The position numbers and the translations under genes were made by a program. Positions 107 through 38,321 of a stretch of 64,000 nt of DNA are shown here, piece by piece. The DNA comes from Armatimonadota bacterium (GTDB taxonomy: Bacteria; Armatimonadota; Hebobacteria; CAIYQO01): contig JAGUZN010000220.1 in assembly GCA_020060775.1 (NCBI GenBank), positions 984-64,983 of the forward strand. The letters are read 5' to 3'. The number at the start of each line of letters is the position of its first letter. The first letter of the stretch is position 1. A model generated the notes under the pieces. It saw nothing but the letters and a program-made list of their open reading frames with translations. It made no database searches and had not been told where the DNA came from.

Positions 107-3016
107 ATGATTCAAGCCTGGGTCTTTTCAAAACTGGAACCAGTCAAAGATGACCCGATGGTGGTCGTGCGTGACCCGTTGGGATTGACGGAAGGCATGG
201 AGAACGCATTACATGCCTGGGGTAAAACACACACCTACGCTGTGATCCCTTGTGCGACTAACCTGCTCTTCCGATATAAATATGAAGAAGCACGGGCGGA
301 TGAAACCATTAAGAAAATACTCATCCTTGATCGTACTCCTTTGAGTCGGCGCACACGTCCTGATTATCATCGAGCAGCGGCGCCGTTCTATCCAGATATA
401 TTGGCGCAAACGCGCCCCGAGGCGTGTATCGAACTGGATCTGCGGCAGTTCTTGCGTGAACAAACAAACGATGCGTATTGGCCACAGGAAGTGAATGAGC
501 CACGCCTGGCCCGCCTGCTCATGAAATATCTCGATGGAGCTCTGCGTGCCCATGAGAATCTACGGGCGGCAAGCCCTGATCGTTTCACCGACCAGGATTT
601 AAAAACGATCATCGCTTTTGCGGCTCTCGGTGTACCGGAAGCTGCTTTTAAGAATCTTTCCGCCAGTGAGTATTGGAAGATCGGTCTGCGTGGTCATCAT
701 GAATTGCGCGGGTTGGAGCAGCTCATGCCTGAGATCACCGAGACGATCACCGGCAAACTGAAGAAGGCACCAGCCCCGTTCTGTTGGCTTGCTGATAAAT
801 ATGACCCAGACACGGTGATCCGGGCTTTTTACCTTTCCGTTGTGTTGGCACAGCATGTGACGCACTGGCAAACGCTGCCGGCGAATGTTGATCCGATCTT
901 TGGGCGTATGGGCGGCATCGCCCCCGAGACCTTGCAGGATGCTGCCCCCAAGCTGGTGAGCCTTGATCCGGCACGAGCGCAAAGCGACATTCGCGCGATG
1001 GAAGATAAGTTGACCGTTAAGAATTTGCATTTTCTGCTACTCGAACAGATGCAAATTGAGGCACGGTTCGCTGAGGTGATCGAGAAAGAGCAATACTCGG
1101 AATTATTCCGTTCCCTCTCGCTCATTCTCGCCCTTGATAATCTCTGCTCAACACACCCGACCCAGGAAGCGCAAAAGCGGGTGAGTGAGGCGTTACTGGC
1201 TAAACGTTCACAACGCGCGCTGGTTGACCTTCGCCCTTCAGCGACCTGGAAAATATTACGACAGGCATATCTCCGTGCCGTACGACTTCTCGCCTTGCGT
1301 GGGCAACTTGGCAAATTCGTCAAGGAGCTTGACCAATTGCCGGAAACTACGCAGGTGCTCTATCTGGCGCCCGGTCAAGAAAAAACCGTTGCCTTTCATG
1401 TGAAGCCGGATATTTCACTAGCCACCAATAGTGAGAGAGCTTCAGGGGAGATGCCATGGGCACTTCGGGTGTGCCCGGTATGTTATGAGCGTGGCTTAAT
1501 AGAAGAAATTAGTACGCGATCTGAAAAATTCGGATCGATCCCCGTCTTGGTTAGTTACATATGCGAAAACGGTTGCCAACCACAGAGTGGCGAACGCCTA
1601 CACAACGATCCAGATGACAAAAAGAGAGAGTATTTTAAGAAATATGATGTCGGTAAATTGGCCGAGATAGAAGAAATGGAAATACCATATTGGTATCCGA
1701 GAAATCGCATGATGAATGCCCCTGAAGATCAGGAATGTTGGGGAGTAAAATGGCGCGCTGGAACTAGTAACTTTCGAACTGTCGACGAGTTGTTTACAAA
1801 ACGAAATTTGTGGGCTCTCGCTGTACTCTTCAATGCAGCTTCTCAAGAGCAGACCAGCGATGTGCTTAGGTTTAGACTGGAAGCCATTTTACTAAATTTG
1901 TCTCGTATGCAAGGTAACACTACTGATCCTCGCTTCCCCAATAACATTATTCGAGGGACTTATTATACACCTCAAATTATGCGTGAATACTCAGTTTTGC
2001 CGTGGTATGCCGGTAAGATACGAAATCTAATTGATGGTTATTCTAAATTATACCCTTCATACCAGGGCTTTGGAGAGGTTTGCATTTCTACACAATCTGC
2101 ATGTTCAATGGATGCCATTCCAGATAATTCACTTGATTACATATTCACTGATCCACCGTATGGGGACAAGGTTCAGTATGGAGAACTCAACTTTGTATGG
2201 GAATCATGGATGGGGTGGAATACACTTTGGCATGATGATGAGATCATAATTAATGACGTCCGGGGCAAGACCGAGCTTGATTGGTCTGAAATGATGGAGT
2301 GTGTAATTAAGGAGTGTTACAGAGTCTTAAAGCCTGGTAGATGGCTCACTTTATGCTATCACGACACTTCGGAGGGAACTTGGGCACTTGTCCAGGACCT
2401 GATGAAAAACGCTGGTTTTATAGTGGACGTTTCAGGCAGTACTCTATTTATCGAGACAGAGCAGAAATCGTTCAACCAGCTTACGGCTGATATCGAAGAA
2501 ATGTTCTTTATGGCGCACCGCATCTCAGCGCTAACACACCGGCATCCCAGGAGCCAGATGGCATGCGGTCTCTACTGCATAATGGCAAAAGGCTTGCTGT
2601 ATGGATTGACGCCCGGAGAGGCCTACCGGTTTATGGTCGAACAGGGGCATCGGTGCTACAACGTCACCCCGTTTCAGCAGGAGATGTCCCATTTCGCGCG
2701 CATCCTCTCTGGCGAACTAATCGGTATGCCTATTAACGAGATTGCCTCCAGCGGCTATGTCATACATACGCTGGAGGCCAGTCTGTGGTGCCTGCTCACA
2801 ACAGGCTCATTCGAGGATGCTGTATTGACGGCGGTGAACCTGGGCGACGATACCGATACGACGGGATGCGTTGCCGGCGGGCTTGCTGGCGTGAGTTACG
2901 GAGATCATGCAATTAATGCTACCTGGTTATCAGTTATTGTCCGGTCATCTGATATGCGAGCGCTGTCGCAGCACTTTCTGGCAGTGATACCGCAAGAGAT
3001 CGGTATAGGAGTGTAG
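107..3016 (+). CDS. Large multidomain protein: N-terminal domain of unknown function with a Cys-rich Zn-ribbon (CPVCY...CENGC), an N6_N4-type DNA methyltransferase-like core (DPPY motif IV, then RVLKPGR), and a C-terminal ADP-ribosylglycohydrolase-like region
   Basis: Motif 'SMDAIPDNSLDYIFTDPPYGD' followed by 'CYRVLKPGRW' matches the PF01555-style beta-class MTase layout. C-terminal 'THRHP' and 'NLGDDTDTTGCVAGGLAGVSYG' match the ARH-family signature (GGDTDT.AAIAG.L.G). A canonical FxGxG SAM motif was not found; only a degenerate 'VDVSGST'. Confidence 0.6.
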   Translation: MIQAWVFSKLEPVKDDPMVVVRDPLGLTEGMENALHAWGKTHTYAVIPCATNLLFRYKYEEARADETIKKILILDRTPLSRRTRPDYHRAAAPFYPDILAQTRPEACIELDLRQFLREQTNDAYWPQEVNEPRLARLLMKYLDGALRAHENLRAASPDRFTDQDLKTIIAFAALGVPEAAFKNLSASEYWKIGLRGHHELRGLEQLMPEITETITGKLKKAPAPFCWLADKYDPDTVIRAFYLSVVLAQHVTHWQTLPANVDPIFGRMGGIAPETLQDAAPKLVSLDPARAQSDIRAMEDKLTVKNLHFLLLEQMQIEARFAEVIEKEQYSELFRSLSLILALDNLCSTHPTQEAQKRVSEALLAKRSQRALVDLRPSATWKILRQAYLRAVRLLALRGQLGKFVKELDQLPETTQVLYLAPGQEKTVAFHVKPDISLATNSERASGEMPWALRVCPVCYERGLIEEISTRSEKFGSIPVLVSYICENGCQPQSGERLHNDPDDKKREYFKKYDVGKLAEIEEMEIPYWYPRNRMMNAPEDQECWGVKWRAGTSNFRTVDELFTKRNLWALAVLFNAASQEQTSDVLRFRLEAILLNLSRMQGNTTDPRFPNNIIRGTYYTPQIMREYSVLPWYAGKIRNLIDGYSKLYPSYQGFGEVCISTQSACSMDAIPDNSLDYIFTDPPYGDKVQYGELNFVWESWMGWNTLWHDDEIIINDVRGKTELDWSEMMECVIKECYRVLKPGRWLTLCYHDTSEGTWALVQDLMKNAGFIVDVSGSTLFIETEQKSFNQLTADIEEMFFMAHRISALTHRHPRSQMACGLYCIMAKGLLYGLTPGEAYRFMVEQGHRCYNVTPFQQEMSHFARILSGELIGMPINEIASSGYVIHTLEASLWCLLTTGSFEDAVLTAVNLGDDTDTTGCVAGGLAGVSYGDHAINATWLSVIVRSSDMRALSQHFLAVIPQEIGIGV

Positions 3017-3314
3017 GTCTGCCTCCGTTGATGTGGAACACTCATCGCTCTTATAGCGACAGCTTGCCCTTATTTATCCGTAGGGGGACGTCAATATCAA
3101 TTACTCGCGCTCGAAGACACTGCTCTGCATATGGTTGAAGATAGGCACGAATCGGTCATTTAGCTAATCCGACAGGCACTATAAACGACGTATCCATTGA
3201 TATTGCGGAGTCTCACGAAATCATTGCTGGTTTTGGACCTTAGGCGTATACTTGCTCTGTTGGGCAAGTAGCGTTTGGGTGCAAGCCATAGTAATCGGCT
3301 AATGGCGCTATTCT

Positions 3315-4388
3315 TTGAAAGGCGTGGAGCAGACCGTGGCAAAGTTGTTCATGAACGGCCTACAGCTAATTCTATCTTCCGATAGCTTCACTGCATACGA
3401 GGCAGAAATGCCCGAAGATGGTAGCTTGCGGAAACTGCGCGACCGATATGGCGACGGGTGGTTTTTCCATCGTCAAGGTAATAAGGTATATGGTTTTCCA
3501 CAAGTCGATCGTCCTACCATCCCATTTGGCACGTCCGTAGCATTAAAATGCCAAGAAAACCTTTCTATGCTAGCTGCGGTAGTCGGTGATATTATAGGAC
3601 GACGTCGATTCGGAGGCCAGGTATTATTCCGTCATCGTGGTGCGGAGTTCATCAGTAGTACAAAGGAACTCATCAGTGATGTCGCCAAACAAATGCCGGA
3701 TCTTCCCGACATAGTCAAGTTATTCAAAGCTTATCCACGTTTTACTTTAGAGGCAAAAGTCCTTGAGCTACGCGATGGCGATGGTGGGATCGGGTTATTC
3801 GTTACGTTGGGAAGCAGGTGGCGTATCGAAGCACCTCTCCACGATCTGTTGAGTAAAGGTATTGACCTTCAAGGTATGTACGTCGTTCGAAGGTATCCCG
3901 AGAAAGGCCAGCGGAGGCTTGTTGGTAGAATCTCCTGCATTGATAAAGGAACCGTCAAATTGCTAGAGTCATTCGACGGTACGGCTGAGATTGCGTGCGA
4001 CGACGTGTGGCTTGAAGGGAATAGAGAAAATTTTGCCTATTGCTTGAAGCACTTACTGAAGGCGCGTTACCTATCATTTGAGACTAAGCGTAGGGAAATA
4101 GAAGACCAGTTATTGTCGGGGCCTAAATTTCAGACAACGATACAAAGCATTGCACAGTCATTTACAAATAAGCCTCCCATGCAACTCACTCCTGATCTCC
4201 AGTGCATTGTTGGCGATATGATTTCCGTGAAAAATTTCGGCGGATACTGCACTGTGCGTGCCGCTTCTCCAGTGCAATGTTGCTATGATGCTGCACGGAC
4301 GCAACGGATGGAGTATCCCTGGAAAGGGATCGAAAATTTGGTCCGTTTAGTCGTGACACCTTTACAAGAAAATCACCGACGATACTAG
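3315..4388 (+). CDS. Hypothetical protein, candidate APAZ-like partner of the downstream short Argonaute (no recognizable catalytic motif; first gene of the operon)
   Basis: 357-aa ORF (TTG/ATG start ambiguity at 3315/3351). Stop TAG at 4386-4388 lies 2 nt before the pAgo ATG (tight coupling); an AT-rich promoter-like gap is upstream (3017-3314). The role is inferred from synteny with short-pAgo operons only. Confidence 0.4.
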   Translation: MKGVEQTVAKLFMNGLQLILSSDSFTAYEAEMPEDGSLRKLRDRYGDGWFFHRQGNKVYGFPQVDRPTIPFGTSVALKCQENLSMLAAVVGDIIGRRRFGGQVLFRHRGAEFISSTKELISDVAKQMPDLPDIVKLFKAYPRFTLEAKVLELRDGDGGIGLFVTLGSRWRIEAPLHDLLSKGIDLQGMYVVRRYPEKGQRRLVGRISCIDKGTVKLLESFDGTAEIACDDVWLEGNRENFAYCLKHLLKARYLSFETKRREIEDQLLSGPKFQTTIQSIAQSFTNKPPMQLTPDLQCIVGDMISVKNFGGYCTVRAASPVQCCYDAARTQRMEYPWKGIENLVRLVVTPLQENHRRY

Positions 4389-4390
4389 TT

Positions 4391-5605
4391 GTGTTCCCCG
4401 ATAGTGAACAAGGACCTGTTGAACGATTCCTTCGTTCGTTTCGCGACGGGATATCGTCGTCAGCCTTTGCATCTGGCTTTGTCAGGAACTTTTCTCTCGT
4501 CAACTTAAAGATTGAAAAGGTGCGAGTACCCTGGCTGGGGAAAGGGAGTCAGGCTCCTGCGCAAGCGTATAGAAAGGCGATAGATGATTACTTGGCATCC
4601 GCAGATTCGGTGCCAGATGCTGGGATCGTCATTCTCCTAGACGAACATGCCAAACTTCCCGATGCGGTAAACCCGTATCTACATGCTAAATCATCATTGC
4701 TCACGGCAGGTGTCCCGGTCCAGGAACTACGGGTGCCGACTATCAAGCAAGCTGACACATCGCTTTCCTATACCCTGCGTAACATCGCTCTCGCTCTGTA
4801 TGCAAAAATGGGGGGAACCCCATGGACAGTCGACCAGGATATGACGATCAGCGATGAACTGGTGATTGGCATGGGGAGCTGCGCACTCGCAGAGAGCCGT
4901 TTTATAGAGCGTGAAAGATATGTTGGCATCACTACCGTCTTTCGAGGAGATGGCAGCTACCTACTGGGGAACATCTCCAAAGAATGTCCGTACCGTGAAT
5001 ATCCGCAAGTTCTGGAGAGCGAAACTATATCTGTATTGAATGAAATCAAATATCGGAACGGTTGGCGTCCCGGTGATACCGTGCGGATCATATTTCACAC
5101 CTACAAACCATTAAAAAATATCGAGGTAGAAGCGATTGCTGCCAAGTGTGTGCAAGCTATCAGCGGTGAGCAGAATATCGAGTTTGCATTCCTCACGATT
5201 TCTCATGATCACCCTTTTAGACTTTTTGATATCGACCAGCAAGGTATCAAGGGTACGAAAGGCATCTATGTTCCCCAGAGGGGAATTATTATGCAGCTTG
5301 GACGATACACTAGGTTGCTTTGTACAACAGGACCAGAGTTAGTCAAACGTGAAGGATTGCCTTTGCCAGCACCTCTGCTTGTTCATCTGCATCCTGCATC
5401 AACCTACCGTTCATTAGATTACCTAGCTGAACAAGTATTGAAATTTACTGCGCTCTCGTGGCGTTCGACATTGCCTGCGCCGAAACCAGTAACAATCTTT
5501 TACTCTGACCTGATTGCGCAATTCCTGGGTCGCTTACAGCGTATTCCTGATTGGTCTCCGGCAACTCTAAACGCAAAATTACGTGCGAGTCGGTGGTTTC
5601 TATGA
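4391..5605 (+). CDS. Short prokaryotic Argonaute (MID-PIWI only), predicted catalytically inactive
   Basis: PIWI hallmark 'LYAKMGGTPW'. MID 5'-end-binding-like motif 'YLHAKSSLLTAGVPVQ...IKQ' (Y-K-Q-K spacing). RNase H catalytic positions replaced ('VIGMGS' instead of GxDV, 'IFHTYK' instead of RDG). Size of 404 aa is typical of short pAgos. Confidence 0.7.
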   Translation: MFPDSEQGPVERFLRSFRDGISSSAFASGFVRNFSLVNLKIEKVRVPWLGKGSQAPAQAYRKAIDDYLASADSVPDAGIVILLDEHAKLPDAVNPYLHAKSSLLTAGVPVQELRVPTIKQADTSLSYTLRNIALALYAKMGGTPWTVDQDMTISDELVIGMGSCALAESRFIERERYVGITTVFRGDGSYLLGNISKECPYREYPQVLESETISVLNEIKYRNGWRPGDTVRIIFHTYKPLKNIEVEAIAAKCVQAISGEQNIEFAFLTISHDHPFRLFDIDQQGIKGTKGIYVPQRGIIMQLGRYTRLLCTTGPELVKREGLPLPAPLLVHLHPASTYRSLDYLAEQVLKFTALSWRSTLPAPKPVTIFYSDLIAQFLGRLQRIPDWSPATLNAKLRASRWFL

Positions 5606-6843
5606 CGACGTATTTGTCAGGAGTATATGCTCAGCAACTTAGTACCCTAGCGACACATATCGCTGATGATGCAGTGTGGCCATCTCCGTACGCCGGGTTT
5701 CTTTACTATCTGTGTAACAAATACGATCAGCAGTTTCTGGCACCTTTGATTAACCCTTCACCGCCATGTGTTGAGCTCGGGCGGCTTTACGAGGCACCGA
5801 TTCTTGCATCAGCAGGATATTTATTCGCGCTTAACCATCCTGTAGTTCGTGCAAGTTCCGAAGCTTGGCATATTGGGTTTCAACGGCTTGCTGGGCGCGA
5901 TCCCTTCCCAATTGACCGCCAGTCATTCGTATATCGTCCAATAGAACTGCTTGGTATTACACTTGGAGTGAAGCACTGCCCTAATACTACGCAGGCAGAG
6001 ATTGATTGGCTTATAAATGTGCTACAGAGTGCTGAAAGCCGGCTGAAGAGTGCGTCCTGTTGGCAGTACCTGCTTGGTATGTATGCTTCACGACTACTGG
6101 GTAATTCCTGGGCAAAGCGTTCCTGGGATATTGGGCAATTCCCTGTGGATGACTTGAGCATCGTGGTATGGCTGTGCGCCAATACTCCTGATTTAGCGTT
6201 TGAATTCGGTGTAGACCAATTATACAAGCAAGCAGAGGAATCATTACTGACCCAGTGTGCAAAAACGGAGGTTACCATCCCAGATCCCGCACGTGCTGCA
6301 ATACTCTACTCTAGTCTTGACCGAGCTGTGAGCCGGAGTATTGAATCAGAGCACGAGCGCAATTGGCAAATAGGCCGTGATCAAGCCGATGCCCTCTCAA
6401 TCGTTATCACGTTATGCCGTAGATTTGATTTGTGTGTAAGGCAACTCCAACGTAGGCAGCGAAGTCGCAATCCTTTCACTGTACAAGATGAGTATGATGT
6501 CCAAGACCTGATGCATGCTTTGTTGAAGTTACACTTTGATGATGTTCGTCCCGAGGAGTGGACACCGTCATATGCTGGCAACGCATCACGCGTCGATTTT
6601 TTGCTTAAACGAGAGATGATCGTTGTTGAGGTAAAGATGACTCGCGATAGCCTAGCTCAACGTGAGCTAGCGGACCAATTAATTATTGATAAAGAGCGGT
6701 ATCGATCACATTCTGACTGCCGTATACTGGTGTGTTTTGTTTATGATCCGGAGCATCGCTGCACGAACCCGGCAGCATTGGAGAATGACCTCAGCGAGCA
6801 GATCGGTCTATTTAGGGTTGAAGCAATCGTCTCACCTGCGTAG
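5602..6843 (+). CDS. Protein with a C-terminal PD-(D/E)xK nuclease-like domain (restriction-endonuclease fold); candidate effector of the short pAgo operon
   Basis: ATG at 5602 overlaps the pAgo stop TGA (5603-5605), i.e. ATGA coupling. C-terminal motif 'DEYDVQD...SRVDFLLKREMIVVEVKMTRD' has D-x11-E-V-K spacing. The N-terminal ~300 aa are of unknown function. Confidence 0.5.
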   Translation: MTTYLSGVYAQQLSTLATHIADDAVWPSPYAGFLYYLCNKYDQQFLAPLINPSPPCVELGRLYEAPILASAGYLFALNHPVVRASSEAWHIGFQRLAGRDPFPIDRQSFVYRPIELLGITLGVKHCPNTTQAEIDWLINVLQSAESRLKSASCWQYLLGMYASRLLGNSWAKRSWDIGQFPVDDLSIVVWLCANTPDLAFEFGVDQLYKQAEESLLTQCAKTEVTIPDPARAAILYSSLDRAVSRSIESEHERNWQIGRDQADALSIVITLCRRFDLCVRQLQRRQRSRNPFTVQDEYDVQDLMHALLKLHFDDVRPEEWTPSYAGNASRVDFLLKREMIVVEVKMTRDSLAQRELADQLIIDKERYRSHSDCRILVCFVYDPEHRCTNPAALENDLSEQIGLFRVEAIVSPA

Positions 6844-7290
6844 GTCTGCGGAGCAATGTTATGCAAATGCAATTCGTCGTACATCCGAGAACGTATGAGA
6901 TCAACGGCTATTTCTTTCAAGTGCTGTCATGTTGCGCGTTGACTGATGGGCAGGCAGCTAATGCTGCCATGCATTTTTATCAAACACATAAGCTAAAGAA
7001 GAAAGACAAAGGAAAATTAATTAAAGTCATAACGAGCCCTGATACGGATACTGCAGGAATCTTTGGGTAGCACGGCTACCTATGACTACAGATACGCCAA
7101 CCTAAGTTATGCAACGTGATCTGAAGGAAGCATTCAGCAGTATTACCAGGTTACTCCTACATGAGCGTGAGGAGTATTCATTAGGTCGGTCCAAAGACCG
7201 TGCTGATATTTTAAGCGCAGGGTCTCCAATTCCCTCATGGCAGCCCCTGCGACCATTACCTATGTGGATGGTCCTTCACTTATTTGATAC

Positions 7291-8298
7291 TTACAGATCA
7301 AGCAATGATGCCGAATTCTCTTGAAACAACACCCCCATGCGGATATACCGCTGCACCATCACATTCGACCGATGACCGGTCTGCTGCATGATAGATCGCT
7401 CGTTTGCACCTGCACGGGCGGCGGCGGTGCAGTGGCCGGCGCGCAGGGAGTGACCGCTGTAGCGTTTCGGATCAAGGCCGATCTCTTTCACCATCTTCTT
7501 GATGAGATTGGCGACGGCACGATCCGATAAGCGCTCACTGCAGAGTTTGTCATGACGGTTGATGCCGCGGAAGAGGGCGCCGCCGGTAATCCCGCTGGAT
7601 TCCAGCCAGGATTTCAAGGCACGCACTGGACAGGTTTCTTCATGAGTGCCAAATGGTATGGCGACCCAACGCCCTTCACCTTCTTGATCTGTTTTTGATC
7701 GGCGGAGGCAGATAACGACTCCTTCCTCCCTGAAGGTCAGGTCGGCGACATCAAAGGCGACCAACTCGGAGCGCCGGAAGGCGCCAGCGTATCCCAGGAG
7801 TAGCAGTGCGCGGTCCCGCCGGCCTTTCAATGTCTCTGGTAATACCGCCATGATGCGTCTCATGTCATCGGTCATCAAGGCATCGACCTGGCGGGCGGTG
7901 ACGCCGATCCGCCGGCGAATGCCGCGCATGACGGCCCGCACGGCGGCGTGTTGGGTGGGGGAGGGGTGGCCAGCGTGTTGGTGGATGGCGCTGATGGCGG
8001 CCATATAGCGCGAGAGCGTGCTGTACTTGTGGTCGGTCGTCGCCATCGCCGTCATGTAGCAGGCAATCGTCTCAGGGCTGGCCGGCATCGACGGCAAGTG
8101 GTATTGTTCGCACCAGGCCACGAACTGCTGCCAATCCCGCTCGTAGGCCTCCCGCGTGTGTTGCGAGATACCTTCCTCGATGAACTCCTGGACTTGCTCG
8201 ATCAGTGGAACGAGAAGGGTGTGATCGGGGTGCTGGTTGGCACTGGGCCCGATCCGGGCAGGCAGTGATGCTGGCTGGGTGATGGGAGCCTGATCCAT
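7291..8298 (-). CDS. Tyrosine site-specific recombinase / phage-type integrase
   Basis: C-terminal catalytic region 'HSLRAGHCTAAARAG...TGHRS..MVQRYIR' (R..H..R..Y pattern). It sits at the GC-content transition at the right edge of the lower-GC island. Confidence 0.8.
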   Translation of the reverse strand: MDQAPITQPASLPARIGPSANQHPDHTLLVPLIEQVQEFIEEGISQHTREAYERDWQQFVAWCEQYHLPSMPASPETIACYMTAMATTDHKYSTLSRYMAAISAIHQHAGHPSPTQHAAVRAVMRGIRRRIGVTARQVDALMTDDMRRIMAVLPETLKGRRDRALLLLGYAGAFRRSELVAFDVADLTFREEGVVICLRRSKTDQEGEGRWVAIPFGTHEETCPVRALKSWLESSGITGGALFRGINRHDKLCSERLSDRAVANLIKKMVKEIGLDPKRYSGHSLRAGHCTAAARAGANERSIMQQTGHRSNVMVQRYIRMGVLFQENSASLLDL

Positions 8299-8561
8299 TA
8301 ACTGAGTCTTATCGGAAGCTAGAATAGCTTCGAGCTCAGAATAGAGTCAAGTCGCGCCAGTTCAATCCTAAATGTGTTCCCCCTCGGGCTGTCCCCAGCC
8401 GTCATCCTCTGCATTTTCTACCCGAAATGCCTCTAGGCGAGTACGTTTGGCTACACATTTTGCCCTGGAGGTGCCATGTGTTCACGACAGATCGGTTTCT
8501 AGCTTCCGTTAAGACTCAGATATGAGCTACAACGTGTCTGGTAACACCGGTAGGGGGCAGG

Positions 8562-32900: not shown

Positions 32901-33086
32901 GGGGGGGGCAGTATTATGATGGTATCGGTGAACTCATCTGAAAGGGAAAGGGGTTCACCGAATACTTATCTTCACGAATTCACGGTCGACCTGTGTGGTG
33001 CGAAGGCTCATCTAGAATTCCCGTGATGCGACAACGTGCTCCTGCGTGGCAATATCCGCCTCACAGGTCTCGAGAACAGTTGGCGT

Positions 33087-33335
33087 TCACGGGCACTTGG
33101 GTAAGTGCGTAATCGGGTCGAATAGGACACGACCTTTCTTGCGTTGATACAAGGCGCGTAGTTTGCTCACAAGCAATTCTTCCAGTGAGAAGTTGATGAC
33201 GGAGACGTTATCCTGTACCCATCGCGAGTCGACGGCAAATGGTCTAGCAGCCTGTTGCACAACCACGGCCGATTTTCTGTCAACCGACAGAGCGCAAGCC
33301 GATGATTGCACTGAAATGGCTGTTAAGATGAACAT
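33087..33335 (-). pseudogene. Fragment of a second abiEii-like toxin gene
   Basis: Encodes 'EELLVSKLRALYQRKKGRVLFD', a near-identical match to 'DELLGTKLRALYQRKKGRDLFD' of the intact AbiEii at 31090-31917, but only ~80 codons and on the opposite strand. Confidence 0.5.
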
Positions 33336-33659
33336 CTCGGTTTGGTAAGGTTGGACCCTGTTACGTTATTGAGCTCGAATGCTTACCTGTAGACCAAGGG
33401 CACGTCCTTGCTCAACAGGCTGCTAGGCACCAGCACGGTCTGTTCAATATGCGCACGGGTAATCGTCCCCTTGGAGAAGTGACGGTATACCCATGCGCGC
33501 TTTTCATTCCCGCTCGGTCAGGTGAGTCACGGCGTCCAGCCGGCCCGGCACTATATGGGGGAGCCGAGCCTTATGGCTTATAATCGGTTGTGGACGTGGC
33601 AATGAGAATACGATCAGTACCGATACCACTATTTTGGGGGAAGGAAGGAATCCGCTGCT

Positions 33660-35342
33660 TTGCACCAAATACACTATTTGTGTGCCATCATGCCGATTAG
33701 GACTGATAATATGAGTTTGTCAACAAAAACTCCTCAAAATCCAGATCTGGCAAATCCTAGCAGTTGCCATTCCAGTTTAGGACCCCTTAGGCTGCCGCAG
33801 TCATTTTATGGCGATGCGTTCACGACGTTTCTATATGGAGCGGCGATATGCTGTATCGTTACGAAGGTCGATGCTGGTTATTCATGGTCTAATTTCGGTC
33901 TGTTGGCAATCATCTATATATTTTTTGATTGGGTTAGCAGAATTCTTTTACCATCATGTTTGCCCAATGACGACTTAGCTGTGAGAAATCGCATATACTT
34001 GAATGTGCTAAAAGCACTACTGGAAGCTGCAGGTTTATACTTGCTTACCGCTTTCCTTCTATCTGTTTTCACAACACCATTATACGGGTTATTTGCAGGA
34101 TTTTTGATCGTCAATTTATTGTGGAATTTGTTGTTGTTGTATATTATGGGTGGCCTTGGATGGAGGGACTTACAAGATGTTTGTTTTAAAGGTAATGGAA
34201 TGGATAACGAAGCTATAGCATTACATTCGTCGACCATTACGGAAATCGAAGCTCTAATAGAGAAGGCTGATATCTCTACTGACAATGCAAACACTAGTAG
34301 TCAAGTCATAAAAACGTATAATAATCACATAAAGCTTCGTAGTAGTATCAATTCAATAGGCGCAATCTACCGGATGCTCATACAATTGTTCGCATTTCAT
34401 GTTCGATATGGATATGTAGTTATTGTAATATTTGTTGCCAAGATGCTATTGGAGAGTACAACGAATACTTGGGGAAGTTTTCTGTTGAAAAAAACATATT
34501 TTTCTGTAGTGCTTGATTTCGCACAAGTCACAACAATGCACATAAGCATTTTTTGTGATAATGGCTATTTGGATGAGATATTTCTTACTGTATTAATATT
34601 AATACTTTGTGGTTTTGTTTTACGCTCTGTTAATATCAGTAATGTTTTTCAGAGTGATTGGTGGAAAAGTTACATTGCTAGTATTAAAGATAAAAACTAT
34701 GAAATGCTTGTCCCGTGGATGAAGATAATATGCAGTGTACCACTTTTCTTTGCTTGTTTGTACATATTATATATAATATGTTTTGTTGTATACACTTATT
34801 ACCCGCAGTTGTTCGCAGGTATTGATAGTGAAGGTGTAGGCATTGGCTTCCCAATCTTACTTTTTATTTATATTTTGTTGTTTTTCATACCTTTCTTATT
34901 TTTTAAATACGCACAACTTAATAAAATTATGAAAAAATCAATTGCTTCAAATGGAGATAACCATAAGAATCACGCCTCTATTTCTTGCTCATGCCCTCCT
35001 TCCAAAATCCAAGGAGAGGAGGAGAATAAAGCGATTGTCATTGAGAATTTACGATTTCAACAGGCTTGTAGAAATGGGTCATTATCACTTTATATCATTC
35101 TATTACTACTTTACTTCGCGTTGCCGATAAAAGACTTTGCAATATTTATTGCATTCCAGCAGGCCTGTGTTACGCTATTCCTATGTATCGCCGTATCTTG
35201 TCCACTTGAACAGAGAGATGAACCTATTGGCAACTTATGTCGAATGAACTCCCCGAGACCGACTTCGTGCCCTCCAAATATTAACGACGGGCTTGATGAT
35301 ACAACATCAGTGACGCCGAAAGAACAGGTAACAAGTTCATAG
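33660..35342 (+). CDS. Multi-pass integral membrane protein of unknown function (strongly AT-rich gene)
   Basis: 560-aa ORF with many hydrophobic segments; local GC content is far below the surrounding DNA. Confidence 0.5.
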   Translation: MHQIHYLCAIMPIRTDNMSLSTKTPQNPDLANPSSCHSSLGPLRLPQSFYGDAFTTFLYGAAICCIVTKVDAGYSWSNFGLLAIIYIFFDWVSRILLPSCLPNDDLAVRNRIYLNVLKALLEAAGLYLLTAFLLSVFTTPLYGLFAGFLIVNLLWNLLLLYIMGGLGWRDLQDVCFKGNGMDNEAIALHSSTITEIEALIEKADISTDNANTSSQVIKTYNNHIKLRSSINSIGAIYRMLIQLFAFHVRYGYVVIVIFVAKMLLESTTNTWGSFLLKKTYFSVVLDFAQVTTMHISIFCDNGYLDEIFLTVLILILCGFVLRSVNISNVFQSDWWKSYIASIKDKNYEMLVPWMKIICSVPLFFACLYILYIICFVVYTYYPQLFAGIDSEGVGIGFPILLFIYILLFFIPFLFFKYAQLNKIMKKSIASNGDNHKNHASISCSCPPSKIQGEEENKAIVIENLRFQQACRNGSLSLYIILLLLYFALPIKDFAIFIAFQQACVTLFLCIAVSCPLEQRDEPIGNLCRMNSPRPTSCPPNINDGLDDTTSVTPKEQVTSS

Positions 35343-35384
35343 TTAATGGTATATAAGTGATCATCAGATTGGAGTGACCAAGCG

Positions 35385-36842
35385 ATGTCTATGATTGATC
35401 TAGTCATAATAGGAGTTTATTTGATGGCGTTGTTCTGCTGGGCTATTTATATTGGCCTGCGAGAAAACGCCCAAGATTTTTTGGTTTTCTCGCGGCGTGC
35501 TCCTTTTGTGCTGGTATTGTTTTCTATTGTAGCTACCTGGGTTGGCGTTGGCACGACCGTAGTGACAGCGGCATCGGCATACGAATCCGGTATCTCACTA
35601 GGATTGATCGCCTGCCTTGGGGGCGTGTTGGGGTCTATCGGTGCCGCAATCTTTGCCCCTCGTCTGAAAGCGTTTGGAGACCGTTTCAACGCGCATACCA
35701 TCGGAGACTTCTTCCTGATCCGGTATTCAAACGGTGGACGCTTGATGGCTGGTGCACTGATAACAATCGTCTATTCACTGCTGACCGCCGCGCAACTCGT
35801 AGGGCTTGCAACGCTCTTGAAGGTTTGGACTGGGCTTCCTGTGGAGGTCGTCATCATTTTTGCTGCGTTTTCCACCGTAGCCTATACGGCGTTCGCTGGG
35901 ATCAAAAGCGATTTTTATACCGACATCATACATTTTATAGTTATGGCAATTGTTCTCTTTGTTATCCTATTGCCATTGACACTGGATAAAATTGGCGGAT
36001 TACATGGATTGCTGCGATTACCTCATACTTATTTCGATCCCTTCTCCTACGGAGGGCCAGCTCTATTCATCGCTGGAATGATCTTTGGCGCAGGCAGTGT
36101 TTTCGTGACCATGGAGCTTTGGCAACGCGTCTACGCATCAACAACCGGACGTGCCGCACGTATCTCGCTTGCAGTTGCCATCCTTCTTATCGTTCTCTTT
36201 TACGCGGTATCCACTGTGTTGGGTATGTCAGCAAAGCTACTATTACCGAATCTGCCGAATCGTGATTTTGCCTTGTTTGCGATGATGAAAGAGTATTTAC
36301 CTACAGGTATGCTGGGGCTAGGGATGTCAGGATTCATGGCGATTATTCTGTCTACCTTAAACTCAACACTGATGGTAACCTCTGCGACCTTCACCAAGGA
36401 TTTCTGGTGTGGAGCTCTTAATAAATCCGCTGATGACCAAAAGGCATTGTTATCTGTGGGCCGAATTTCTACATTTGTGAGCGGAGCTATTGGTCTGGGG
36501 ATTGCCTTGATACTACCTGATCTGGTTGCCTTAAGTGTCAATGGCATGTTCATGTTGCTGATCATCCTTCCAGCCATCGCTGGGGGATTCTTCTGGCGAC
36601 GTGCTACTGCCACGGCTGCAACGCTTTCCGTCTTCGCAGGAGCGCTTGTGACAGTGATTTTCTTGAAAATCGATGCTGGTATCGCGTTTGTGCCTGGTTT
36701 TCTCACAAGCCTTCTAGTTTTCGTTATTGGCTCTCTTGTCACTGAGCACTCTATAGAAGAAAATATTGGAGTTGTTTCTATGTGGCGAGGGAAAGCGGAA
36801 ATCCCGTCGATGCATGAAGGAGATGTTCATGACTTACGTTAA
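35385..36842 (+). CDS. Sodium:solute symporter family (SSS) transporter
   Basis: N-terminus 'LVIIGVYLMALFCWAIYIGL...DFLVFSRRAPFVLV...ATWVGVGTTV' typical of SSS/PutP-like permeases; ~13 TM segments. Confidence 0.65.
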   Translation: MSMIDLVIIGVYLMALFCWAIYIGLRENAQDFLVFSRRAPFVLVLFSIVATWVGVGTTVVTAASAYESGISLGLIACLGGVLGSIGAAIFAPRLKAFGDRFNAHTIGDFFLIRYSNGGRLMAGALITIVYSLLTAAQLVGLATLLKVWTGLPVEVVIIFAAFSTVAYTAFAGIKSDFYTDIIHFIVMAIVLFVILLPLTLDKIGGLHGLLRLPHTYFDPFSYGGPALFIAGMIFGAGSVFVTMELWQRVYASTTGRAARISLAVAILLIVLFYAVSTVLGMSAKLLLPNLPNRDFALFAMMKEYLPTGMLGLGMSGFMAIILSTLNSTLMVTSATFTKDFWCGALNKSADDQKALLSVGRISTFVSGAIGLGIALILPDLVALSVNGMFMLLIILPAIAGGFFWRRATATAATLSVFAGALVTVIFLKIDAGIAFVPGFLTSLLVFVIGSLVTEHSIEENIGVVSMWRGKAEIPSMHEGDVHDLR

Positions 36843-37932
36843 TACTGTGGAGCAAGTAAGCGATAAGCTGATGGCTGCTACCGATTCTGCGAATTGTTCT
36901 GCGATGTCAGCCTTACTCCACCAGGTGTGCCAATCGCTTCAAGAGTCTGACGCATCATTCTTGCGTCATTGGTATAATAGTCGGCTTACACGCGCCTGCG
37001 AAAACCCTATGCTTGGCGAAAAAGCCGTTACCATCTTCGCAGATTTGCTAGGAATTACCGTCGAGACGGCACAATGCGTTGAGAAGCCATGGATGCTTCT
37101 ATACATCCATGCACTCTTATTAGATGACATGATTGATTATATCCCTAGAGAAGAATCAAAAAAAGTTCAATCATTATGCAGCGCTTTCGATAGGGAACAC
37201 AATAAAGTATGTGAGCTGCTATTGAATGAAAATTTTGTGGTGTATTCACATCACCATCAGCGCTTCAATGCTGAAGCATGGGCAGCTATAACTTACGAGA
37301 TTGAATGGTCAAAAGGAACTAGATTCACATCACATAATGAAGCGCCACGTCAGCAAGGCCTCAAAGCCGCTCTCGCAAAGTCGTGTGCTACCATGCTTAT
37401 GCTTGCTGAACGTGGTATACCTCTTTCATCAGAACAGGAAGAGGGCATTATTACATTATGCGAAGGTATTCAACTTCTAGACGATTTTGCTGATATGACA
37501 GAAGATTATATGCAAGGACGTATGAATAGGTTGTTGAATACAACATATCGATGGATAAGGAGAAATCTGCCATGCATAGATATAGCTTATCTGGGCAAAT
37601 ACCAGCTACTCGTCTCTGCGATTCTTTCTTCTGCGATTACCTGCACATGGATTGATGCGGCAAATCGATATGAGCAGACATTGCAGATATTTAAACCCTC
37701 TAGTGAGTGCTGGACTGCTCAATATTTTTTGCAACAATCAGTGGAATGTCGACTATGCAGCACTGCATTAACTGATTTACTCACGCAAAATCGTTGCCTG
37801 TTGGATCAACTCATCACAGCTCTGAGTGTGAACGAAGAAGAATTAGCGTGTAAGTTAACAACCGGATGCCTAGCCGGTTTATGGCAAGATATTCGCTATA
37901 TTATTGGGACAGGACCAAAAGCAAGTAATTGA
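36829..37932 (+). CDS. Isoprenoid synthase fold protein (polyprenyl synthetase / class I terpene synthase-like) with two Asp-rich motifs
   Basis: 'HALLLDDMIDY' (DDxxD) and ~125 aa later 'GIQLLDDFADMTED' (second DDxxD preceded by a G..Q-like context). Start placed at ATG 36829, overlapping the symporter stop. Confidence 0.4.
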   Translation: MTYVNTVEQVSDKLMAATDSANCSAMSALLHQVCQSLQESDASFLRHWYNSRLTRACENPMLGEKAVTIFADLLGITVETAQCVEKPWMLLYIHALLLDDMIDYIPREESKKVQSLCSAFDREHNKVCELLLNENFVVYSHHHQRFNAEAWAAITYEIEWSKGTRFTSHNEAPRQQGLKAALAKSCATMLMLAERGIPLSSEQEEGIITLCEGIQLLDDFADMTEDYMQGRMNRLLNTTYRWIRRNLPCIDIAYLGKYQLLVSAILSSAITCTWIDAANRYEQTLQIFKPSSECWTAQYFLQQSVECRLCSTALTDLLTQNRCLLDQLITALSVNEEELACKLTTGCLAGLWQDIRYIIGTGPKASN

Positions 37933-38321
37933 CCGTGGGCAATTCCATCATCGCCTGGGCAATATAGACACTTTTTTCTGAATTAGGTGACAGTATGGGC
38001 AAACTGAAGTGTTCTCAGGAGGCGCGTTTTTTCTTCCGGCATTTTGCCCGGCGTCGTCGCATCTCCTCATAATCGGGTAACGCGTATGCCGGTTCTTCCC
38101 CCTGTGCCCTGGCAGCTTTAGCGACTTGGCACCTGAGTACCCCACGTGCGAAGATATCGACGAGTTCCGCCAGGCGGGCCTCGGGGGTCATCTTGGTCGG
38201 GTCGATGGTGGTATTGAACATGGGACACACCCCTTTCATGAACGTATGACGGACAATACCTCAACATCGGCTGACATGGGAAGGGGATGGCGGAAGATTG
38301 TTTTTGAGGATAACGTAGGAT

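Follow-up and report, generated by a model that had tools for sequence, protein, structure and literature searches.

The locus described here lies in a 64,000-nt stretch of an Armatimonadota genome (assembly GCA_020060775.1, contig JAGUZN010000220.1, positions 984 to 64,983), hereafter the window, in which three consecutive open reading frames (ORFs) on the forward strand are predicted to make up a two-gene module of a prokaryotic Argonaute (pAgo) and a nuclease. The first, ORF1 (3315..4388, 357 aa), has no match in Pfam and occupies positions 2-314 of the 724-position PADLOC profile pAgo_II (PDLC02379, E 6e-45); it aligns with residues 23 to approximately 345 of RsAgo, and corresponds to the N-L1-PAZ*-L2 half of a long-B pAgo. 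Its probable true start, as read from the DNA, is the GTG at 3336, 7 nt 3' of a GGAG. The second, ORF2 (4391..5605, GTG start, 404 aa), contains the MID domain and a catalytically inactive PIWI domain, with a Pfam Piwi match (PF02171) of 62.9 bits, above its gathering score of 28.9, that covers profile positions 13-298 of 302; it occupies positions 334-724 of the same PADLOC profile (E 2e-156) and matches RsAgo with an E value of 6e-142. The third (5602..6843) encodes a bAgaN-type effector with an N-terminal helical domain and a C-terminal PD-(D/E)xK nuclease domain, and its ATG overlaps the stop codon of the pAgo gene (ATGA, 5602-5605).

Because ORF1 and ORF2 cover consecutive parts of one profile, they are read as one gene rather than as a pAgo with a neighbouring APAZ protein, and the sequence indicates a single RsAgo-type long-B gene broken by a -1 frameshift. 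On NCBIfam NF052569, the equivalog model of the Rhodobacter-type 'protein argonaute', ORF1 aligns at 3-329 and ORF2 at 349-759 of 759, and as deposited the two score 192 and 553 bits respectively, both under the cut-off of 700. Three-frame translation places them in different frames, and the uninterrupted frame expected of an RsAgo-type long-B pAgo is lost at 4333-4339, a run of AAAATTT (A4T3) that is one base short in comparison with the family: where relatives have GAA AAA TTT or GAA AAT TTT, the pAgo gene reads GAAAATTT. The deposited bases around the junction, within 4300-4400, are GAAAATTTGG. The final 17 codons of ORF1 (4335-4385) form an out-of-frame tail, NLVRLVVTPLQENHRRY, and a segment in the frame of ORF2 but 5' of its GTG (4334..4390, + strand), encoding KFGPFSRDTFTRKSPTILV at the L2/MID junction (residues 341-359), is part of neither ORF.

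The gene was repaired by reading through the GAA at 4332-4334 and then re-reading base 4334, which is equivalent to restoring one base in AAAATTT. The resulting protein of 763 aa (756 aa from GTG 3336) aligns with RsAgo end to end (residues 11-763, E 2.6e-201), covers its relatives of about 760 aa at 99%, and scores 796.5 bits on NF052569 in one stretch, 3-759 of 759, now above the cut-off of 700. The repaired junction, WKGIEKFGPFSRDTFTRKSPTILVVFPD, matches the family consensus without a gap, and its GIEKFGPFSRDTF is identical in three relatives (P0012, P0016 and P0020). An AlphaFold2 (AF2) model of the repaired pAgo has a pLDDT of 89.4 and a pTM of 0.88, and superimposes on RsAgo with a TM score of 0.89 over 766 columns, compared with about 0.66 for other long Argonautes (Foldseek); there were no short-pAgo chains among its top 50 structure matches. 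The protein is divergent, with a mean identity of 49% and a maximum of 53% to relatives over its whole length, and 50-64% over MID-PIWI in a protein scan of genome contigs. The 404-aa ORF2 is stored as a separate protein in both NCBI and JGI/IMG, on the same 65,141-nt contig, under the name 'hypothetical protein' in JGI. ORF1 also contains a 17-nt direct repeat (4196-4212 and 4266-4282, 70 nt apart, 94% identical, TCTCCAGTGCA(T/A)TGTTG), which is probably a chance match.

The preliminary description of this DNA had classified ORF2 as a non-slicing, effector-activating short pAgo whose upstream gene, if APAZ, would supply the N/L1/L2-equivalent domains. The non-slicing character and the effector-activating class are retained here, but not the short architecture, the protein being of RsAgo-type long-B and 763 aa when repaired. 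Similarly, ORF1 does encode the N/L1/L2-equivalent domains, but as half of the same pAgo gene; it matches the long-B N-terminal half only, and neither it nor any other part of 107-8298 gave an APAZ, TIR or SIR2 match in Pfam, PADLOC or NCBIfam. On PADLOC Class II (long-B) the score of ORF2 is 520 bits, whereas no model of Class I, to which the SIR2 partner model also belongs, gives it more than 60 bits; this placement in a clade was made by profile scores.

The PIWI domain of the repaired protein is predicted to be unable to slice. Both metal-binding aspartates of the DEDX catalytic tetrad are missing (G521 and Y597; all tetrad and pocket residues are numbered on the repaired 763-aa pAgo), and the tetrad is therefore incomplete. 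It had been proposed that VIGMGS and IFHTYK occupy the sites of the two catalytic aspartates of slicing Argonautes, and this is the case, although the exact equivalent of the RDG aspartate in IFHTYK is Y597 and not T596, a change of register that leaves the loss of the aspartate unaltered. With the register corrected, acidic residues are absent from both aspartate sites and present at the fourth site, D732. The mapping was made by three routes that agree: phmmer alignments to EcAgo (PDB 23wq) and RsAgo (5awh), which are gapless across the motifs; published structure-based tetrad equivalents (EcAgo G492/E532/Q568/D700, RsAgo E569; PMC13535254); and a profile-profile alignment of the 55-member family of the window pAgo with a 13-member TtAgo family, which is colinear over 252 columns with a low hhalign probability. 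The latter pairs TtAgo D478 with G521, E512 with R561 and D546 with Y597, the TtAgo sequence used being 100% identical to PDB 3DLB over 685 residues. It replaced a comparison by hhalign between the family profile and the single TtAgo sequence, which covered only 98 columns and slipped by one residue at GMG. Neither an explicit assignment of the tetrad nor the limits of the domains are given in the main text of the RsAgo structure paper.

In VIGMGS (4862-4879), G521 (ORF2 G162; 4874-4876) is the equivalent of TtAgo D478 and EcAgo G492, and this position is Gly in 55/55 family members. In IFHTYK (5090-5107), Y597 (ORF2 Y238; 5102-5104) is the equivalent of TtAgo D546 and EcAgo Q568; the family has F, A, H, Y, S, T, K, R or P here, and never D or E. 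The glutamate-finger loop (4994..4999) carries R561 (ORF2 R202; 4994-4996) at the column of TtAgo E512, RsAgo E569 and EcAgo E532, with E562 adjacent, and 49/55 members have E or D at 562. The fourth residue, D732 (ORF2 D373; 5507-5509), is the equivalent of TtAgo D660 and EcAgo D700, and this position is acidic in 47/55 members (E in 43, D in 4). YLAEQV was rejected as the site of this residue, as the EcAgo alignment places it in FYSDLIA. By alignment, then, an acidic fourth position and a finger-loop Glu survive, as in EcAgo and other long-B pAgos. Two individual residues of the window protein are unusual: the Arg at finger column 561 stands where 40/55 family members have D or E, and an Ala at 524 (4883-4885), three residues past GMG, stands where 52/54 relatives have Glu.

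The pocket of the MID domain (4676..4807) that would bind the 5'-phosphate of a guide RNA is intact. Y455, K459, Q470 and K498 correspond to RsAgo Y463, K467, Q478 and K506 and are invariant in 55/55 family members, while R473 and T476 correspond to RsAgo R481 and T484. This RsAgo pair touches guide nucleotide 1 at its 2'-OH and nucleotide 2 at its phosphate (PMC4919518).

The downstream ORF matches the PADLOC model Aga_Helical-REase (E 1.7e-74) and the Pfam DpnII-MboI restriction endonuclease family (E 2e-51). Its nuclease block, DEYDVQDL...RVDFLL...VVEVKM, retains an intact D..EVK motif (D332 at 6595, E343-V-K345 at 6628-6636), the counterpart of the D-EVK motif that is essential in EcbAgaN (PMC13535254). 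A phmmer search of the window nuclease against PDB sequences gave no match, EcbAgaN also going undetected. A bAgaN homologue lies directly 3' of the pAgo gene in 21 of 23 related loci from GTDB representative genomes, mostly starting at the pAgo stop codon, and the remaining two loci stop at a contig edge. We assign the effector function to this putative nuclease and not to a fusion protein upstream, and 3315-6843 as a whole appears to be a horizontally acquired two-gene long-B pAgo-nuclease (BPAN) module. Variation is seen in the partner gene elsewhere. In four cyanobacterial loci, of Nostoc, Nostocales and Rivularia (L002, L003, L007 and L019) the gene next to the pAgo (approximately 11263-12700 in L002) keeps the helical N-terminal domain, while its C-terminal part differs, being repeat-rich and without the PD-(D/E)xK nuclease, which looks like the swapping of effector domains on a common adaptor domain. 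In two further loci (L009, 1277-2216; L013, 11233-12436) the bAgaN homologue is found as two tblastn segments in different frames, so that frameshifts, whether real or derived from assembly, are not confined to the pAgo gene of the window but affect the effector gene elsewhere among BPAN loci.

In the BPAN system as defined by Song et al. 2023 (PMC10620215), invader DNA is sensed by a long-B pAgo that is catalytically dead and guided by RNA, and the nuclease that this sets free degrades DNA indiscriminately and kills the cell; in EcBPAN, the system of E. coli, autoinhibited nuclease dimers are drawn into an 8:8 complex by EcAgo once it has bound its target (PMC13535254). By analogy with these systems, the pAgo encoded by the first gene would bind its target without being able to cut it, and the bAgaN encoded by the second would be translationally coupled to it through the ATGA overlap. 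The pAgo would load small 5'-phosphorylated RNAs from the transcriptome, as in EcBPAN and RsAgo, and the guide-loaded protein would recognise complementary invader DNA, recruit the autoinhibited nuclease and relieve its repression, such that the released nuclease would degrade DNA indiscriminately and bring about abortive infection.

The interruption of the pAgo gene bears directly on whether this module could function. We favour, by a little better than even judgement, a real and evolutionarily very recent deletion of one base that disables or cripples the sensor. The loss of a base in the A/T run (4333-4339), where L2 meets MID, would leave a 357-aa N-terminal fragment and the 404-aa MID-PIWI ORF, and without a working sensor the nuclease would stay autoinhibited. 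The hidden 19 residues have a mean identity to relatives of 65% and a maximum of 84%, compared with 49% and 53% for the whole protein, and their conservation exceeds that of 89% of 19-aa windows; such a segment points to an event of very recent date or to continued translation of these residues, the latter being what an isolated sequencing error would explain. The AF2 model is confident at the junction, with a helix at 335-342, a coil, and the first MID strand at 356-362. All 19 relatives with contigs spanning the junction have a single frame there. Complete Pfam domain coverage is seen for approximately 14 host genes of the window, which argues that the assembly is not generally error-prone, and this completeness, together with the truncated, chimera-like state of a neighbouring 969-aa ORF (described below), argues that the frameshift is real rather than an assembly problem.

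Several observations weigh against this interpretation. The guide type, target type and mode of nuclease activation are assigned here by homology, and the missing base is read from the deposited sequence, the best relative being 62% identical over MID-PIWI. A metagenome pattern scan that allowed either allele gave 0 matches and hence no intact allele; a plasmid collection held nothing relevant, and look-ups of contigs with the exact protein returned nothing. The break falls nearly exactly at the boundary between the lobes, with the ORF1 stop 2 nt before the GTG of ORF2, as would be expected of a functional split, and the chance of a randomly placed lesion falling there is estimated at about 1 in 25. 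In addition, the repaired pAgo has 18 deviating residues in 181 highly conserved columns, against a family mean of 8, which could be due to divergence or to an older relaxation of selection.

The best-surviving alternative, although we consider it unlikely, is that the gene is intact in the organism and the missing base is an isolated sequencing or assembly indel, in which case the product would be a single-chain 763-aa pAgo in a working BPAN. The position of the lesion in a pair of homopolymers speaks for this, as do the absence of drift in the hidden segment, at that same high rank in conservation, and the intactness of everything else in the two genes, including the YKQK pocket, the D..EVK motif and the ATGA coupling. 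However, consensus errors would be expected in runs longer than four bases, the domains of the other window genes that were checked are complete, and the separate 404-aa ORF is carried by NCBI and JGI/IMG alike, the deposited sequence being consistent.

It is less likely again that the two ORFs represent a newly arisen functional split, in which ORF1 and an ORF2 reinitiated at GTG 4391 would form a heterodimer like AfAgo-N/AfAgo that controls bAgaN. Split long-B pAgos with several independent origins are documented and work like the single-chain versions (PMC10954474), and the position of the break, at the hinge between the lobes and with the ORF1 TAG 2 nt from the ORF2 GTG, would suit such an arrangement. 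In contrast, a split here would remove from both chains 19 residues of the junction that are well conserved, among them the GPF..F motif (at least 90% conserved), and would leave ORF1 with a 17-aa nonsense tail. No Shine-Dalgarno sequence is seen before GTG 4391 on reading the DNA, none of the 19 junction-spanning relatives is split at this place, and none of 120 database relatives is split or begins at the junction. We hold it doubtful, and rank it below the heterodimer itself, that such a split at the L2/MID hinge still licenses bAgaN and represents a living stage of the transition that is proposed to lead from long-B pAgos to split and short systems.

A programmed -1 ribosomal frameshift that yields full-length pAgo is very improbable. 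The heptamer A_AAT_TTG (4334-4340) does formally conform to X_XXY_YYZ when read in the 0 frame, and slipping back by one base there would regain the downstream frame. Re-pairing of the tRNAs, from AAU to AAA and from UUG to UUU, would be poor, which counts against such a slip. We rejected this explanation because there is no stimulatory structure downstream (z = -0.66, with 47/200 shuffled sequences folding as well), because the product would read GIENLGPF, with a Leu where nearly all 54 relatives have F, Y, W or H and none has Leu, and because no relative is frameshifted. The last candidate, a short MID-PIWI pAgo with an upstream APAZ effector as in SPARTA, SPARSA or SPARDA, we regard as practically negligible and have rejected: ORF2 alone does hold just a MID domain and an inactive PIWI domain, but ORF1 has no match to APAZ, TIR, SIR2 or a nuclease-APAZ protein, and the ORF2 profile scores, the end-to-end RsAgo alignment and the NF052569 score of the repaired protein are all long-B.

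Among the known systems closest to the window locus is RsAgo of Rhodobacter sphaeroides (PDB 5AWH/6D8A), with which it shares domain order and length, the fold noted above, and a Foldseek identity of 42-43% over the whole model. RsAgo likewise has a Gly at the first aspartate position (RsAgo G529), the YKQK pocket, the R481/T484 pair and a gene for a predicted nuclease directly downstream. The two differ in that the window gene is frameshifted, has an R at the column of RsAgo E569 with the E one residue later, has a Y at the site of RsAgo H605, and has Ala 524 in place of the Glu of most relatives; the host of RsAgo is alphaproteobacterial, while that of the window is Armatimonadota-like. With EcBPAN (EcAgo and EcbAgaN; PMC10620215, PMC13535254, PDB 23wq) it shares the two-gene logic and gene order, an inactive tetrad that is Gly at the first position, non-acidic at the third and Asp at the fourth, and an effector with an N-terminal helical domain followed by PD-(D/E)xK with D..EVK, but the two are distant in sequence, EcAgo matching the repaired pAgo with an E value of 5.5e-83 and EcbAgaN escaping detection by phmmer from the window nuclease.

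The split AfAgo-N/AfAgo of Archaeoglobus fulgidus and its relatives (PMC10954474) likewise consists of an N-lobe ORF and an ORF with MID and inactive PIWI, with an effector further downstream, in a low-GC island. In contrast, the window ORFs are parted by what would be a fresh one-base lesion, the hidden segment is conserved and the PAZ* region is present, and, unlike AfAgo-N/AfAgo, the clade of the window pAgo has no split member among the 19 junction-spanning or the 120 database relatives. With SPARTA, SPARSA and SPARDA the common point is that an inactive PIWI protein senses nucleic acid and licenses a toxic effector, leading to abortive infection. These systems differ from the window locus, which lacks an APAZ-effector fusion, has an N-lobe that belongs to the pAgo itself and a separate downstream nuclease as its effector, and falls in the long-B clade.

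The window locus is thus a divergent, interrupted member of a known system, that of an RsAgo-type long-B pAgo with bAgaN. The classification is corrected from a SPARTA/SPARSA-like short system to a BPAN module, and this changes both the gene that is taken to be the effector and the expected phenotype, which would be DNA degradation and not NAD+ depletion. With this locus the RsAgo-type BPANs gain a divergent member, from an Armatimonadota-like genome and at most 53% identical over the full length to its closest relatives. Automated annotation has divided the gene, the MID-PIWI half being entered as a protein of 404 aa in its own right. Should the frameshift be real, the locus would exemplify the loss of abortive-infection sensors, or possibly the origin of split pAgos.

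The module sits in a low-GC islet, with a GC content of 0.46-0.52 between 3000 and 7000, whereas the backbone is at about 0.60. No ORF in 3315-6843 passes a coding filter based on GC content at third codon positions (GC3), while the host genes, with a GC3 of 0.58-0.82, do pass. The window is taken to be chromosomal because it carries genes for leucyl-tRNA synthetase (LeuRS) and SMC; the closest other LeuRS sequences are 70-76% identical and, where the source is named, come from Armatimonadota. The islet is flanked by a gene for a tyrosine recombinase of XerC/D-like type (7291..8298, - strand; Pfam Phage_integrase, E 7e-22; NCBIfam scores below the equivalog cut-offs). Directly upstream of this gene is a 26-nt inverted repeat (8299-8324 and 8497-8522, 172 nt apart, 92% complementary), which may serve in recombination or regulation. 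A search for att-like direct repeats at the edges of the islet found none, and no tRNA gene is present in the 64-kb window. The two-gene module is followed by a terminator-like hairpin with a T run (6953..6978, + strand), a consensus match of a kind that is no commoner here than in shuffled sequence; promoter and terminator scans as a whole did no better than on shuffled sequence.

Upstream of the pAgo gene lies the chimera-like 969-aa ORF (107-3016, + strand). Its first 500 residues have no match in Pfam, PADLOC or NCBIfam, residues 511-793 correspond to the middle of a PglX/DUF1156-type N6-adenine methyltransferase (PADLOC PglXI, positions 338-607 of 919, with a DPPY motif), and residues 795-958 correspond to the C-terminal half of an ADP-ribosylglycohydrolase (Pfam positions 139-285 of 287; NCBIfam Tri1 positions 207-356 of 361). 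It was rejected as a conserved partner of the pAgo, there being no homologue beside any of the 23 related loci, and it may be a deletion fusion that points to decay of the islet. A second block of low GC content, 0.40-0.45 against about 0.60, lies at approximately 33000-38000, where two ORFs without a Pfam match (33660-35342 and 36766-37932) stand on either side of a sodium:solute symporter gene (35385-36842), and this block may be another horizontally acquired segment.

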